IMG/VR virus record: IMGVR_UViG_3300042384_000288
Coordinates: 47,108-111,107 of that record
DNA length: 64,000 bases
Reading direction: 5' to 3' (one strand)
Source of the DNA: a virus
In this document: positions 3,435 to 29,015 of the stretch, piece by piece
Position numbering within the stretch: the first letter of the stretch is position 1
Layout of the letters: every line of letters starts with the position of its first letter
Notes under the pieces: model-generated
The model's input: the letters and a program-made list of their open reading frames with translations, nothing else
Databases searched by the model: none
Told to the model about the DNA's origin: nothing
Translations under genes and position numbers: made by a program

Positions 3435-3749
3435 ATGACAGAATTAGATCAACTAACCAAACAAATACGTCAAGCAACTGACTACCAAACTAACAAGCAG
3501 ATCCTGCGTGAAAAAATTCAAGCAGATTTACATTTTGCCTATAACGGAGGATTGTTCAAAACTTCGCCAGAACTAATTGGATTTATCAATGCCTGGGATA
3601 GTGAAACATTGTATTTAGAAGATACCTACGAAAATCCAATTGAAATCAATCGAGACGAATTTTTATCTTTGTGCCGGCAACAATACCAACAGGTAATGAA
3701 CACTTGGCATATAGAACATGAAGAACTTAAACGTGCCCGCAAAGTCTAG
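3435..3749 (+). CDS. Hypothetical protein
   Basis: 104 aa ORF, first gene after the promoter, overlapping the next gene. Confidence 0.7.
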   Translation: MTELDQLTKQIRQATDYQTNKQILREKIQADLHFAYNGGLFKTSPELIGFINAWDSETLYLEDTYENPIEINRDEFLSLCRQQYQQVMNTWHIEHEELKRARKV

Positions 3750-4527
3750 AGGTGTTATATTATTTGCCTTTAATACTGCGGCAGTTGACTATGTGGCAAT
3801 TGCAGATCAATCAGCGCGGCTTATACATCACACGCTAAATTTGCCTGTGACGCTGATAACTGACAAAGAAACAACTACTGAACACATTGATCAAACATTT
3901 GTAGTTGAAAACAATATAAACAATGTTCGCAAAGGTTATGCTAATTTAACAGCTTGGCGCAATGGCAATAGATACCAAGCATACGAACTAAGTCCTTATG
4001 ATGAAACCTTACTCATTGACAGCGACTACCTAATGTTAGATCAGTCATTGTTAAAGTTGCTTGACTTAACTCAAGATTACCAAATTATGGGCAGTAATAA
4101 ATTTCTCAAAGCAGTGTCGCCTACTCTGATGTCCGCTACCAGCATACCACAGGTATGGGCCACTGCGGTACTATTCAAAAAGACCTTAAAGTCTCAACTG
4201 TTATTTGCCCTAGTAGGAAGAATACAGCGCAATTATGATTACTATAGACGACTATACAACATAACTGCTACTAACTTTCGCAATGATTTTGCCTTTGCCA
4301 TAGCCAACAACATTATCAACGGCTACGCACAAGACAACTTAATACCTTGGGCTATGCTGACCGCAGAAAATCCCGTAGTCAATATAGAAACAACAACAAA
4401 TGGATTAATAGTTAGAGAAGAGTCGCAGGCATATCTAATACCTCGTCAGAATCTACACATCATTGATAAAGATTATCTAACATCACCTAAGTTTGAACTA
4501 TTTGTAGACAGTCTATGCCAAGAATAA
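3718..4527 (+). CDS. GT-A fold glycosyltransferase-like protein
   Basis: LSPYDETLLIDSD (DxD) and FRNDFAF motifs; paralogous to 4515..5375. Confidence 0.6.
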   Translation: MKNLNVPAKSRGVILFAFNTAAVDYVAIADQSARLIHHTLNLPVTLITDKETTTEHIDQTFVVENNINNVRKGYANLTAWRNGNRYQAYELSPYDETLLIDSDYLMLDQSLLKLLDLTQDYQIMGSNKFLKAVSPTLMSATSIPQVWATAVLFKKTLKSQLLFALVGRIQRNYDYYRRLYNITATNFRNDFAFAIANNIINGYAQDNLIPWAMLTAENPVVNIETTTNGLIVREESQAYLIPRQNLHIIDKDYLTSPKFELFVDSLCQE

Positions 4528-5375
4528 CATCACACCAAGAACAGCAGGGATTTTTAACTATTGCTCAGAACACAGTAGATACTGACTATCTAAAGTTAGC
4601 CTATGTTCAAGCCATGAGCATTAAACTTGTAATGCCGCAGAGCAAATATGCAGTATTAGTTGATCACAATACTTTAGCGAGCGTAACTGAACAACATAGA
4701 CGAGTATTTGACTATGTTATCACTATTGACAATGACATGGCTGCCGACGAAACTTGGAAACTCAGTAATGAGTGGCAGGTGTTTGAACTAACTCCATTCA
4801 AAGAAACTATTAAATTAGAAAGTGATATTGTGTTTACTCGTAGTATCGAGCATTGGTGGACAGCGTTCAGACTGCGTGACATAGTGTTAAGCACCGGCTG
4901 TAGAGATTATCGAGGTCAGTTGAGCACAGCAAGAGACTATCGTCGAGTATTTGATGATAACCAACTGCCTGATGTATACAATGGTCTAATGTATTTTAGA
5001 TACACAAGAACAGCTACGCAGTTTTTTAACATAGCTCAACAGATATATGCTAATTGGGATTATGTCAGTCAACAACTTTTAAAGAATTGTAGAGACCCGA
5101 GCCCAACCACTGACGTGGTCTATGCACTATCAGCAAAGATATTGGGAGTACAGTTATGCACGTTGCCTTCGGCAGACTTTATTAACTTTACTCATATGAA
5201 GCCTGCTATTAATGCATGGTCTATTCGACCTTGGTGTGAACAGGTAGTATGTGAAACTGACCTACCTATGTTGCGCATAGCCAATCAAAATCAATATCAC
5301 CCAGTACACTATCATGACAAGACATGGGTTACTGATGACATTGTTAAGGAGTATGAGCATGAATTCTTTAGATGA
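4515..5375 (+). CDS. GT-A fold glycosyltransferase-like protein
   Basis: LTPFKETIKLESD (ExD), YNGLMYF, TDVVYA and C-terminal HYHDK motifs. Confidence 0.6.
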   Translation: MPRITSHQEQQGFLTIAQNTVDTDYLKLAYVQAMSIKLVMPQSKYAVLVDHNTLASVTEQHRRVFDYVITIDNDMAADETWKLSNEWQVFELTPFKETIKLESDIVFTRSIEHWWTAFRLRDIVLSTGCRDYRGQLSTARDYRRVFDDNQLPDVYNGLMYFRYTRTATQFFNIAQQIYANWDYVSQQLLKNCRDPSPTTDVVYALSAKILGVQLCTLPSADFINFTHMKPAINAWSIRPWCEQVVCETDLPMLRIANQNQYHPVHYHDKTWVTDDIVKEYEHEFFR

Positions 5376-26966: not shown

Positions 26967-28047
26967 TTTGTACCCACGCTTTAACTAAGTTAATAATATA
27001 ATCTTGTTGTTCGATAGTCAAGGTATGATAACAAGGTAAACTGACAATTCTACGACACATAGCTGATACTTTAGGTGTGGGCTCTGTTATGTATTTTTGG
27101 AATATTGGCTGTTCATTTAGACTTTCTAAGTAGTGTACATTACAAGTAACTCCTTTGGCCTTCATGTATTCAATAAATTCATCTCTACGGGGAATTTCTA
27201 TTACATAAACATAATAGGTATGATAACACCAATCATATTCTTTAGGTGTTACTACATAGTCTTTTAGCTGTTCAGTATAACGATGACAGATACTACGTTT
27301 GCTATCTAACCAACGATCTAAGTGTGGAAGTTTAGCCTGTACAACTGCGGCCTGCAGATTATCAATACGTGCGTTAATACCGCGTACTTCAAACGTCCAT
27401 TTGTTTTGACGTCCATGATTGTTATACATTCTGCATTTAGCAATTAATTCTCGACTGCCTGTAATAGCACCAGCATCACCCATAGCACCTAAGTTTTTAA
27501 CAGGATTAAAACTAAAACAGGTCAAATCTACTAAACTACCTACTTGTTTGCCTTTGTACCTAGTACGTACACTATGAGCGGCATCTTCAATTAACCATAG
27601 ATCATATTTGTCAGCTATCTCACGTAAGCGATCAATATCTGGTGTGTGGCCATACATGTCTACAAATAGAATAGCTTTGGTCTTATCGGTGATTCTGCGC
27701 TCAATTTGATCTACATCAATTTGGTGATTATCATCTATATCAACAAACACAGGATTAGCACCCTGCCAAATAATTGCTTCGCTGGTACTGATAAATGTGT
27801 GTGGAGTTGTAATAACTTCGTCACCTTGTGTAATACCTATCGTCATTAACGCACACATAAGAGCAGTAGTTCCACTGCCAGTAGCACAGCAATCTTCTGC
27901 TTCTACAAAGTCAGCAAACGCTCGTTCAAATTCTGTGGTAATACTACCTGCAATAAAACCACTACTGTCGATCACTCGACGGATAGCTTGATCTATTTCA
28001 GTTTTAATTTCTAAATTTTGTTTTGTTAAATCGGTAAAAGGTATCAT
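26959..28047 (-). CDS. DegT/DnrJ/EryC1/StrS PLP-dependent sugar aminotransferase
   Basis: SGTTAL, GDEVIT, IEDAAH, FSFNPVKNLGAMGDAG; start revised to the TAATG-coupled MIPFTDL. Confidence 0.9.
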   Translation of the reverse strand: MIPFTDLTKQNLEIKTEIDQAIRRVIDSSGFIAGSITTEFERAFADFVEAEDCCATGSGTTALMCALMTIGITQGDEVITTPHTFISTSEAIIWQGANPVFVDIDDNHQIDVDQIERRITDKTKAILFVDMYGHTPDIDRLREIADKYDLWLIEDAAHSVRTRYKGKQVGSLVDLTCFSFNPVKNLGAMGDAGAITGSRELIAKCRMYNNHGRQNKWTFEVRGINARIDNLQAAVVQAKLPHLDRWLDSKRSICHRYTEQLKDYVVTPKEYDWCYHTYYVYVIEIPRRDEFIEYMKAKGVTCNVHYLESLNEQPIFQKYITEPTPKVSAMCRRIVSLPCYHTLTIEQQDYIINLVKAWVQND

Positions 28048-29015
28048 TAATTTCCCTTCCATAATATGGGATTTTTTAAATACCAATTATAGTATCGATA
28101 AAATCCTTCTTCTACATCTACTGTGGGTGTATAGCCTAATTCTTGTTGAGCACAACTAATATCCAATCGACCTCGTTTAGGAAAACTTAAGTCACGTGGT
28201 GCTATTTCTAACTGCCCTTGACCTGCAATTTTAACCGCAAGTTCGGCAGCATCTTTCAAAGTCCATTGGCGTTTTTCTGAACGTGTAATGTTATAGATAT
28301 TACCGTTGGCTACGTCTTTAGTTGCTGCAAGCACAATACCCATAGCAGTATCTTCTACATAGGTGAAGTCTAATACTTCATCTGGACCATTTACCTTAAG
28401 TGTTTCGCCACGCATGGCTTTGGTCATAAACTTACTGACCACACGATCCTCGACGTCCCATTCACCGTATACAGCACTTGGACGAATAATCACATGTTCA
28501 AACCAACCACGGCGACTATAATCTTCTACAAGTTTCTCACCCATATACTTCATAATGCCGTATTGTCCGATTGGCTTGCAGACTGCATCTTCAGAAACAT
28601 CAGCAGTGAAATCACCGTAGACCATGCTTGAACTAATGTAGACGAACTTCTTAACACTGTGCTTTTTACATGACTCTAATAGGTTAATTAATCCGGTTGA
28701 CATAACTTCGCTGGCTGTGGCTGGATCTTGCTCTACTACTTTTTGGCGCGGATAGCTGGCCATATGTATAACTACATCAACTTCGCTAACACCAATCGTA
28801 GTGTCTAACTTATGTTGATTGCGTATATCTACTGGATATACTTCTGAAGCAAAACGTCGACTGCGATGCTGGCTTAAGTAGTTGATTTCTGATTGCGGAA
28901 TAAAACCGTAGCCAGTATTAGTATCTACTACCACGCATTCGTGTCCTTGTGATTCTAAAATGCGTGTGACATTGTGTCCAATAAATCCAGCACCACCTGT
29001 GATTAAGTACTTCAT
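28047..29015 (-). CDS. NAD-dependent NDP-sugar epimerase/dehydratase
   Basis: TGGAGFIG, ISSSMVYG, YGIMK (YxxxK), DFTYVED. Confidence 0.9.
   Translation of the reverse strand: MKYLITGGAGFIGHNVTRILESQGHECVVVDTNTGYGFIPQSEINYLSQHRSRRFASEVYPVDIRNQHKLDTTIGVSEVDVVIHMASYPRQKVVEQDPATASEVMSTGLINLLESCKKHSVKKFVYISSSMVYGDFTADVSEDAVCKPIGQYGIMKYMGEKLVEDYSRRGWFEHVIIRPSAVYGEWDVEDRVVSKFMTKAMRGETLKVNGPDEVLDFTYVEDTAMGIVLAATKDVANGNIYNITRSEKRQWTLKDAAELAVKIAGQGQLEIAPRDLSFPKRGRLDISCAQQELGYTPTVDVEEGFYRYYNWYLKNPILWKGN

Follow-up and report, generated by a model that had tools for sequence, protein, structure and literature searches.

Several viruses are known to make glycans with enzymes of their own. The Mimivirus fibril, chlorovirus capsid and mycobacteriophage virion carry unusual virion-protein glycans that are built in the cytoplasm, independently of host membrane machinery, by virus-encoded soluble glycosyltransferases (GTs) together with 4,6-dehydratase and DegT-type genes; to our knowledge these systems have no radical S-adenosylmethionine (SAM) enzymes, carbamoyltransferase or conserved micropeptide. 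In pelagimyophages and cyanomyophages, a large island, the host recognition cluster (HRC), adjoins the tail-fibre genes and carries glycosyltransferases, GT8 being the commonest, along with radical SAM cassettes, and its suggested function is O-chain modification (PMC7029224; Zaragoza-Solas et al. 2020). Some T4-like marine genomes have also been reported to carry as many as 12 radical SAM genes (PMC5332604). Here we describe a block of ∼25 kb, at positions 3435–29015 of a 64-kb window of viral DNA, that brings together GT-like genes, radical SAM enzymes, a carbamoyltransferase and enzymes for nucleoside diphosphate (NDP) sugars. The window is the whole stretch that was analysed, the final 64 kb of the linear 111,107-bp IMG/VR virus record IMGVR_UViG_3300042384_000288; coordinates are those of the window, and genes are named by their first coordinate. 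Like the HRC, the block adjoins virion/fibre-type genes and contains both GTs and radical SAMs. The HRC, which lies between VrlC and gp14, is however hypervariable and non-syntenic, whereas this block keeps its gene order in 80 of 80 related loci and varies mainly in one GT-B cassette. The gene set as such is thus already known from fibre-adjacent islands of GT and radical SAM genes (PMC7029224). What sets the block apart from described islands is strict synteny, a fixed set of five radical SAM subfamilies shared with bacteria, an invariant peptide of 33 amino acids (aa), and a promoter of its own.

We favour the reading, at odds of about one in two, that the block assembles and edits an unusual oligosaccharide on a phage-made cytoplasmic acceptor, most plausibly either a phage protein (a virion component) or the 33-aa peptide. 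A host NDP-hexose would first be turned into an amino-deoxy sugar nucleotide by a short-chain dehydrogenase/reductase (SDR), a Gfo-type dehydrogenase and a DegT aminotransferase. Sugars would then be added by a GT8-like pair, the 6384-type protein, a 1019-aa protein and a variable GT10-like set of GT-B enzymes. Five anciently diverged twitch radical SAM enzymes, with one auxiliary Fe-S cluster each, could next make distinct hydrogen-abstraction edits, for example epimerisation, deoxygenation, or C-C/C-O coupling. SGNH/DUF6071 proteins may attach or remove acyl groups, and a NodU/TobZ-type enzyme would finally O-carbamoylate the product. This order of reactions, like the radical SAM chemistry, the acceptor and the biological role, is one that we infer. 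The original prediction for this DNA had been of a heavily decorated phage glycan bearing amino, acyl, carbamoyl, sulfate and radical-rearranged sugars; the glycan-type pathway is supported, with its GT-B proteins, NDP-aminosugar enzymes, carbamoyltransferase and radical SAMs, while the sulfate branch is not.

The source DNA looks by its sequence like a fragment of an uncultured jumbo phage, because its flap endonuclease is 51% identical to a PA5oct-like jumbo-phage counterpart, near relatives of the window genes sit on contigs up to 374 kb, and CheckV put the completeness of the record at ∼32%. Taking genome size from that 32% for a 111-kb contig and from related contigs of 320–374 kb, the block fills close to one tenth of the genome. 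When 20 kb of the DNA was compared by megablast with 50,697 phage records, no match emerged. The window also encodes a family-B DNA polymerase and nucleotide-metabolism genes. Just upstream of the block, the C-terminus of the product of an open reading frame (ORF) at 877–2424 matches PA5oct virion structural proteins (virion/baseplate).

Conservation was counted over 80 related IMG/VR loci that were fetched and to which all window proteins were mapped. Gene order was checked across these related jumbo phages, and the same order was kept in 80 of 80 loci, a recurrence that speaks against a chance arrangement. It runs through 3435, 3718, 4515, 5314, 6384, five radical SAM units, 17875, SGNH, carbamoyltransferase, kinase, deaminase and 23072, and ends with DegT and SDR genes in convergent orientation. 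Across a large clade of uncultured jumbo phages, which are abundant and aquatic, the block therefore forms a syntenic core, and it is not peculiar to one genome. It is common to hundreds of related phages, and its genes stay 60–90% identical across relatives, which implies that it must matter for infection. The GT-B genes, by contrast with this fixed core, vary among loci in number, place and strand. A cassette at 7279–11246, comprising three GT-B genes and a small radical SAM gene, is absent from the closest relatives (loci L003 and L008), in which the homologues of 6384 and 11321 abut. Such variability in number and place is what would be expected for glycan diversification.

A cultured relative shows how the block is composed. 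Ralstonia phage RsoM2USA (344 kb) has a reduced GT module beside its sheath and structural genes (the latter identified in PMC8504454). This module contains genes like 3435, 3718, 4515 and 6384, one radical SAM gene, and a gene like the C-terminus of 23072. A second module, ∼90 kb from the tail genes, holds an SGNH-like gene, a subfamily-2 radical SAM gene (50% identity), a 36-aa ORF, one further gene, and a carbamoyltransferase gene (48%). Since RsoM2USA carries both halves apart, the block is a fusion of two separable modules, a GT module and a peptide/carbamoyltransferase/radical SAM module.

Six radical SAM domains had been predicted in the block, and all six were found, five of them in NCBIfam family NF033640 (N_Twi_rSAM, with an N-terminal twitch domain). 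The five units each scored 282–388 bits against a cut-off of 170, over model positions 1–398, and are only 20–26% identical to one another; in their alignment C132, C136 and C139 (CxxxCxxC) and the N-terminal C8, C26, C79 and C82 are invariant. Subfamily 1 is encoded at 11321–12712 (plus strand; 282.6 bits; 78 loci, 65% identity) and subfamily 2 at 12696–14072 (plus strand; 285.6 bits; 80 loci, 63% identity), the latter being 50% identical to RsoM2USA ORF202 and 48–54% to genes of Pseudobdellovibrio exovorus. Subfamilies 3 and 4 are fused in a two-unit protein (14069–16624, plus strand; 706.6 bits in total over two stretches) and are separate genes in most relatives (L003, L017, L036 and others). 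No other gene of the block is as conserved as that of subfamily 5 (16611–17897, plus strand; 290 bits), which has homologues in 80 loci at 76% identity; when its product was searched against metagenomes, 8000 of 8000 scored candidates were at E ≤1e-5, and the best 120 were 77–100% identical. The sixth domain belongs to a small accessory radical SAM protein, MoaA-like in its N-terminal half (8225–9073, plus strand; PF04055, E 6e-13), which was found in 7 of 80 loci.

The case for a sugar-bearing substrate of the phage enzymes is best made, at present, from cells, where genes of the same family also lie among glycan genes. None of 14 model genomes had an NF033640 match above cut-off. In the phylum of a Bacteriovoracaceae metagenome-assembled genome the family was present in 45 of 201 genomes, often in at least eight copies, clustered. 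Ten bacterial NF033640 clusters were surveyed; 35 ORFs overlapped N_Twi_rSAM-type matches, and the 114 other ORFs included 25 further radical SAM, six GT2 and five Glyco_tranf_2_2 genes, methyltransferases, one DegT and one Polysacc_synt_2. Three of the ten clusters had homologues of the 6384-type domain next to radical SAM genes. P. exovorus JSS has, at ∼2.38–2.41 Mb, genes that best match each of the five phage subfamilies (tblastn, up to 54% identity), in a cluster that also encodes an SGNH hydrolase, an ArnT/RgtA-like GT, an NTP transferase, another radical SAM protein and a GT2. A Methylomagnum plasmid likewise has an NF033640 member inside a GT39/GT2/GT4/ABC-transporter polysaccharide cluster. 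In a quick maximum-likelihood tree (SH-aLRT support only) there was a bacterial sister inside each of the five phage clades, with P. exovorus genes in four; the sister in the subfamily-1 clade was from another genome, and the 716-aa subfamily-1-type gene of P. exovorus had been omitted from the tree for its length. These neighbourhoods suggest that the radical SAM set is tied to glycan genes in cells too. Our literature search turned up no functional study of the NF033640 family, of phage radical SAMs or of the block's gene combination. A cultured Vibrio phage, K566 (255 kb), was noted to have at least five radical SAM genes at ∼160–178 kb, with 21–24% identity to N_Twi_rSAM units and with all neighbours annotated as hypothetical.

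The clearest GTs are three related proteins with an (S/T)EK...PF signature, predicted beforehand and confirmed here as a single family with an invariant E-K pair. They are encoded, all on the plus strand and in the variable cassette, at 7279–8232 (SEK...PF; assigned by family alignment, with fold evidence from its paralogue 9070–10095), 9070–10095 (TEK...PF) and 10092–11246 (a divergent member, TEK...FPIF, that aligns with the family and keeps the pair). The AlphaFold2 (AF2) model of 9070–10095 (pLDDT 83.9, pTM 0.84) has a GT-B fold, so that the non-GT fold that would speak against a GT was not what we found for this protein. All Foldseek matches listed from the PDB were glycosyltransferases or related sugar-metabolism chains, nearly all GT-B. 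With VIA-align the Helicobacter pylori α1,3-fucosyltransferase came first (Z 10.1; rmsd 4.2, 211 residues aligned), followed by T4 β-glucosyltransferase (BGT; Z 9.4), FUT11 (9.0) and FUT9 (8.5), and T4 α-glucosyltransferase reached 8.1. Giant-virus GT10-like proteins and Mimivirus L138 were weaker structural neighbours. BFVD held 22 relatives at E ≤2.3e-7, 21 of them from uncultured phages, and one relative was fused to a UDP-glucose/GDP-mannose dehydrogenase domain. No Pfam glycosyltransferase family rose above noise for any of 15 TEK-PF family members at E ≤1. In the family alignment E245 and K246 are invariant and E233 nearly so; this E-K motif may be that with which GT10 enzymes bind the nucleotide sugar, and T4 BGT ties with them structurally. 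We interpret the TEK-PF proteins, on their modelled fold, as probable GT-B sugar transferases closest to the GT10 fucosyltransferases, although they do not match the GT10 sequence model.

Of the four GT-A-like genes predicted beforehand, the genes themselves are there, with DxD or ExD motifs in 3718, 4515 and 6384; a GT-A fold is suggested, and the links to GT8 and GT2 are weak. Genes 3718–4527 (plus strand; invariant DxD, D101 and D103) and 4515–5375 (plus strand; invariant ExD, E102 and D104; matching phrog_1903) encode paralogous GT8-like candidates (hhalign 98.4%). The profile of the 4515 family matched glycogenin-1 (GT8) weakly in the PDB (E 0.014) over profile positions 3–109, the N-terminal half, and three members matched Mannosyl_trans3 weakly; no Pfam glycosyltransferase family was above noise for 13 members at E ≤1. 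The DxD protein of 6384–7286 (plus strand; motifs YDEP...GVKG...AHKAAA...DGDN) is a GT2-like candidate and almost universal in the clade (69 loci, 59% identity). Mean column identity in its family alignment is 74%, and D65 and D67 are invariant there and nearly so in an alignment of the larger family, which comprises 1372 clusters at 50% identity. The automatic name of this protein in the ESM Atlas is 'Glycosyltransferase 2-like'. Compared by hhalign with one annotated GT2, the expected G..A...DxD region was aligned, at a probability of just 1.2%, and sequence and profile searches found no PDB match. Other single-sequence and profile searches with GT-like and unassigned block proteins against PDB sequences gave nothing usable. 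Three metagenomic proteins of ∼715–810 aa (P0181, P0200 and P0228) had a 6384-type DxD domain fused to a domain in which a GT1-type GT-B motif was seen by eye, and another (P0122) had two tandem 6384-type domains and a long C-terminal extension.

The last plus-strand gene of the block, 23072–26131, encodes a multi-module protein of 1019 aa that was found in 73 loci. Its N-terminal third holds several 65-aa repeats, (D/E)F(D/S)W-x-P-x-P..PPY-x-Y-x-FGNQ, located by regular expression; degenerate 6384-like modules and a C-terminal 6384-like domain complete it. Residues 776–980, which lie in the final 250 of the protein, are homologous to the 6384 family (hhalign 98.6%), with DGD replaced and DxD absent, and homologues of this C-terminal domain occur in RsoM2USA and in bacteria.

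Nucleotide sugars would be supplied by the predicted trio of epimerase, DegT and Gfo/Idh/MocA genes, which is indeed present on the minus strand at 26073–29015. It is of NDP-sugar type, as had been proposed: the nearest models are 4,6-dehydratase, PseC and 4-amino-4,6-dideoxyhexose transaminases, and UDP-GlcNAc 3-dehydrogenase, all scoring below the equivalog cut-offs. The extended SDR NDP-sugar epimerase/dehydratase (28047–29015; PF01370, E 4e-43, 148 bits) is nearest to dTDP-glucose 4,6-dehydratase (TIGR01181, 122 bits, below the cut-off of 365) and was found in 36 loci at 57% identity. The DegT/DnrJ/EryC1 sugar aminotransferase (26959–28086; PF01041, E 1e-104) is nearest to PseC and the 4-amino-4,6-dideoxyhexose transaminases, below their cut-offs, and is 27% identical to the DegT of relatives. 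The Gfo/Idh/MocA oxidoreductase (26073–26966), assigned by Pfam, is nearest to UDP-GlcNAc 3-dehydrogenase (NF040723, 69 bits, below cut-off) and had a match in none of the 80 loci. A second DegT-related sequence was seen elsewhere in the window: the 193-aa product of 48331–48912 (minus strand) matches only the N-terminal part of DegT aminotransferases, and is a truncated or split aminotransferase amid the 7-deazaguanine genes, beside GTP cyclohydrolase I (47469–48152).

The tailoring enzymes predicted for the block were also found, apart from those for sulfate. Two DUF6071/SGNH-like proteins are encoded on the plus strand, at 19007–19825 (DUF6071 at 25.4 bits, just below the cut-off of 27; 52 loci) and at 19900–20538 (35.9 bits; GDS at the N-terminus and a weak Lipase_GDSL_2 match). 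The NodU/CmcH/TobZ-type carbamoyltransferase at 20722–22269 (plus strand) exceeds both family cut-offs, PF02543 with E 1e-36 (127.4 bits; cut-off 24) and PF16861 with E 2e-49 (167.6 bits; cut-off 27), and was found in 73 loci at 64% identity; its true start is likely the ATG at ∼20779 (MNILGISAGFHD). Against the NodU equivalog NF041651 it scored 143 bits, short of the cut-off of 1000, and by these scores we class it as a member of the carbamoyltransferase family rather than a NodU orthologue. Homologues occur in 136 cultured phage records, with identities of 48% in RsoM2USA, 29% in pelagiphage Mosig and 28% for a cyanophage 'Nol-like carbamoyltransferase', an annotation found in many cyanophages.

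The sulfate branch of the original prediction had an adenosine 5'-phosphosulfate (APS) kinase in the block supplying 3'-phosphoadenosine 5'-phosphosulfate (PAPS) to a sulfotransferase at 52944, and it is not supported: the kinase is generic, the block lacks an ATP sulfurylase, and the supposed sulfotransferase is recognised by motifs only. The kinase-like gene (22266–22667, plus strand) encodes a 133-aa P-loop protein with no assigned substrate. PF01583 (APS_kinase) is its top match at 30 bits, covering the P-loop half only (model positions 5–90 of 152), and generic AAA/kinase models score similarly; it falls below all NCBIfam cut-offs, including that of apsK (TIGR00455, 25 bits vs 138.7). The protein at 52944–53576 (minus strand, 210 aa) had no Pfam or NCBIfam match at E ≤0.001; its IPKNSSS and RDPVDRWIS motifs recall PAPS-binding loops, and its gene lies beside the DNA polymerase and 7-deazaguanine genes, 24 kb away.

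Transcriptional layout bears on when and for what the block is used. Genes at 3435–26131 on the plus strand are tightly packed, most of them overlapping, and the three minus-strand genes at 26073–29015 converge on them; the block thus consists of one operon-like plus-strand unit (3358–26131) and a convergent nucleotide-sugar unit (26073–29015). At its head is a sigma-70-type consensus promoter (3358–3387, plus strand; TTGACA, 18 nt, TG-n-TATAAT) that matches at 12 of 12 positions and has an extended -10. A match of at least 10/12 within 160 nt 5' of the first gene was found in 13 of 20 relatives, vs 5.5% of random windows. The promoter is followed by a terminator-like 10-bp hairpin and a U-run (3388–3418, plus strand; dG -10.3 kcal/mol, z -3.4, none of 200 shuffles equally stable). 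For transcripts arriving out of the fibre genes the hairpin is terminator-like, and it overlaps the position at which transcription likely starts; both elements fall in the interval that separates the first block gene from the stop codon of the virion gene before it. In T4, consensus sigma-70 promoters are early promoters. By analogy with T4, this promoter suggests that the block is probably transcribed early and on its own, not within the fibre operon. The T4 late-promoter word TATAAATA was not enriched (four matches vs 9.7 expected), and an argument for a late operon was discarded since its matches were below expectation. The original prediction had taken the position next to fibre genes to suggest virion shielding; the block does adjoin a virion gene, but its own promoter, the terminator-like hairpin, and the ∼90 kb between one half and the tail genes in RsoM2USA weaken that suggestion.

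Several other observations weigh against an oligosaccharide built on a phage acceptor. No nucleotidyltransferase is among the block genes. The sequence links of 3718, 4515 and 6384 to GT8 and GT2 are weak (E 0.014 and an hhalign probability of 1.2%). The consensus sigma-70 promoter suggests early transcription by host polymerase, unlike the timing of virion genes, and RsoM2USA has the peptide/carbamoyltransferase/radical SAM half apart from its tail genes and from the GT half as well. Finally, SPASM/twitch radical SAM enzymes act on peptides more often than on sugars, and a near-invariant peptide is encoded within the block.

That peptide (19797–19898, plus strand) is basic, with the sequence M-x-W-L...YRKKLKELRKRDPFIYK, and has an AAGGAG Shine-Dalgarno sequence and a stop 1 nt before the next gene. 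It was present in 76 of the 76 loci that reach far enough, invariably at 33 aa, with most C-terminal columns 88–100% identical where neighbouring genes are at ∼41%, and always in the same position, after 17875 or the first SGNH gene and before the second SGNH gene or the carbamoyltransferase. No match was found by tblastn in cultured phage records at E ≤0.1. A local search of RsoM2USA did reveal a diverged, unannotated copy of 36 aa that ends in DPFIYK and keeps W-L-K; it lies at ∼125.89–126.00 kb, in a 109-nt 'gap' between RsoM2USA_201 and RsoM2USA_200, upstream of the carbamoyltransferase gene RsoM2USA_199. Annotation pipelines had missed this micropeptide.

The alternative that survives best makes the peptide the object of the pathway, as in a ribosomally synthesized and post-translationally modified peptide (RiPP) or a mycofactocin-like cofactor: the five twitch radical SAM enzymes would cross-link it or alter it in some other way, at W3, Y17, F30, Y32 and K/R residues, and it would then be glycosylated and carbamoylated. 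We hold this to be unlikely. Its presence in every locus, fixed length, near-invariant C-terminus, Shine-Dalgarno sequence and tight coupling to the next gene all fit, as does the diverged RsoM2USA copy beside a subfamily-2 radical SAM gene and a carbamoyltransferase. SPASM/twitch enzymes, moreover, are typical peptide maturases, and the block enzymes have weaker NCBIfam matches to such maturases. Yet the peptide has no Cys; Pfam and NCBIfam detected no RRE/PqqD-like domain, leader peptidase or exporter in the block, though several of its proteins have no family match; and no peptide of this kind was seen in the bacterial clusters whose genes match all five radical SAM subfamilies. It also resembles a basic amphipathic helix, so that it could alternatively serve as a partner subunit. 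The specific version in which it is the pathway scaffold, its aromatic and basic residues cross-linked or rearranged by the five radical SAMs before GTs, SGNH proteins and carbamoyltransferase decorate it, we rate slightly lower still; if true, the phage would make a glycosylated, carbamoylated peptide, whether as a cofactor, an effector or part of the virion, and no virus is known to have a product of that type. The small proteins of 3435 and 5314 were considered as RiPP precursors too and set aside, having one Cys each, and that of 3435 appearing by eye to be folded and largely helical.

Remodelling of the host envelope, in which lipopolysaccharide (LPS), capsule or another surface glycan is altered, for example to block superinfection, is improbable in our view. 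It is the published interpretation of fibre-adjacent GT islands with radical SAM cassettes (PMC7029224). The early-type promoter and the variable GT-B set would suit it, and envelope genes of ArnT-like and ABC-transporter type occur in the bacterial homologue clusters. Against this, membrane segments were predicted in none of the block proteins, and the block has no flippase, polymerase, initiating phosphoglycosyltransferase or Gtr-type component; Gtr-type serotype conversion was ruled out for want of any membrane protein. Strict conservation of the core (60–90% identity) across phages with presumably different hosts would also be unusual for host-specific surface editing.

A free small molecule, whether aminoglycoside-like, nucleoside-like or another diffusible glycoside directed at host or competitors, is doubtful in the extreme. 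The TobZ-type carbamoyltransferase, the Gfo and DegT pair, the twitch radical SAMs (compare BtrN) and the GT-B enzymes recall aminoglycoside pathways, but the block contains no scaffold enzyme (2-deoxy-scyllo-inosose synthase), exporter or self-resistance gene, and neither a 1019-aa repeat protein nor an invariant peptide would be expected in such a pathway.

Hypermodification of phage DNA, with GTs and tailoring enzymes decorating a modified base, we regard as the least probable explanation, hardly to be credited: the T4 β- and α-glucosyltransferases do appear among the GT-B neighbours (Z 9.4 and 8.1, within ∼1–2 Z of the fucosyltransferases), the operon includes genes for a small kinase and a dCMP deaminase and is adjoined by ThyA and DHFR, and the promoter is early-type, but the ThyA is of the canonical kind (339 bits) and has DHFR as its partner, leaving no hydroxymethyl-pyrimidine source evident, the phage already has a separate 7-deazaguanine cluster (with FolE at 47469–48152), the bacterial homologue clusters are envelope-type, and at least seven GT-like genes and six radical SAM domains go far beyond any DNA glycosylation system that we know of.

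The first gene of the block, 3435–3749 (plus strand), encodes a conserved 104-aa protein with no family match and no assigned function; it has homologues in RsoM2USA and, at a mean identity of 53%, in 27 loci. Likewise without family match or assigned function is the conserved 130-aa protein of 5314–5706 (plus strand; 32 loci, 43% identity). The 384-aa product of 17875–19029 (plus strand) is specific to the phage clade, being present in 79 of 80 loci, and also has no assigned function; its AF2 model (pLDDT 82) resembles only weakly a cyclophilin-like barrel with a helical insert, and also helical bundles (VIA-align Z ≤8.6), and neither Foldseek against the PDB nor the ESM Atlas gave a match. 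The dCMP/cytidine deaminase (22657–23079, plus strand; PF00383, E 3e-22; 25 of 80 loci) is probably an enzyme of nucleotide metabolism whose gene sits within the operon, and not one of glycan chemistry, since ThyA and DHFR lie just downstream.

Mobile DNA has touched the block. An HNH/NUMOD3 homing endonuclease gene (5691–6368, minus strand) is inserted between 5314–5706 and 6384–7286; homologues were seen in two of 80 loci, and that of L003 is located between the second SGNH gene and the carbamoyltransferase gene. In the window there is a 184-nt gap 5' of the carbamoyltransferase gene (20507–20760) containing a 57-codon minus-strand ORF that resembles a homing-endonuclease relic, and a 30-codon plus-strand ORF (MNILG...) that duplicates the carbamoyltransferase N-terminus; this region is probably the scar of an endonuclease insertion. 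Beyond the block, a DUF2201 metallopeptidase/VWA protein (33666–34955, minus strand) and a MoxR-type AAA ATPase (36137–37240, minus strand) form a pair, and two perfect sigma-70 promoters were noted on the minus strand (35372–35344 and 35015–34987).

How the block compares with systems already described can now be set out. Among phages, the Pelagibacter phage Mosig has, between VrlC and the tail fibres, genes for a carbamoyltransferase, three MoaA-like radical SAM proteins, DegT, a methyltransferase and an epimerase; a search of Mosig at E 1e-3 gave no match to any of the five NF033640 subfamilies, to the 6384 family, to the 17875 protein or to the 33-aa peptide. The bacterial NF033640 clusters have the same radical SAM subfamilies, in multiple copies, with GT2, SGNH, NTP transferase and 6384-type domains as neighbours; they differ in having membrane GT-C/ArnT-like proteins and in being without the carbamoyltransferase, the 17875 protein and the peptide. 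RsoM2USA (modules separate), Mosig and P. exovorus JSS (genes matching all five subfamilies beside envelope glycan genes) offer culturable entry points.

Mycofactocin is made from a peptide, MftA, with a SPASM radical SAM enzyme, MftC, and a GT2, MftF. The block is alike in having a small conserved peptide with a C-terminal aromatic residue beside twitch radical SAMs and a GT2-like gene, and unlike in showing no RRE chaperone, peptidase or flavoenzyme homologue, in having five radical SAMs instead of one, and in its N-terminal auxiliary domain; scores against mycofactocin family models were below cut-off (TIGR03962, 22–28 bits vs 265). A modified peptide, if that is what the block makes, would open a new class of natural products from viruses. 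Aminoglycoside and Nod-factor tailoring employs TobZ and NodU, the twitch radical SAM enzyme BtrN, and pairs of Gfo and DegT enzymes, O-carbamoylation of a sugar hydroxyl being the usual reaction of the carbamoyltransferase family. These enzyme classes are shared with the block, which differs in having no cyclitol or chitin-oligomer scaffold genes, and in its phage setting and high conservation.

The virus-encoded glycosylation systems of Mimivirus, chloroviruses and mycobacteriophages are matched in another respect, for the block also combines predicted soluble GTs with an NDP-sugar dehydratase and DegT. If its product is a virion glycan, then virus-encoded glycosylation, known from giant viruses and mycobacteriophages, would extend to jumbo phages of Gram-negative bacteria, and would do so with radical chemistry.

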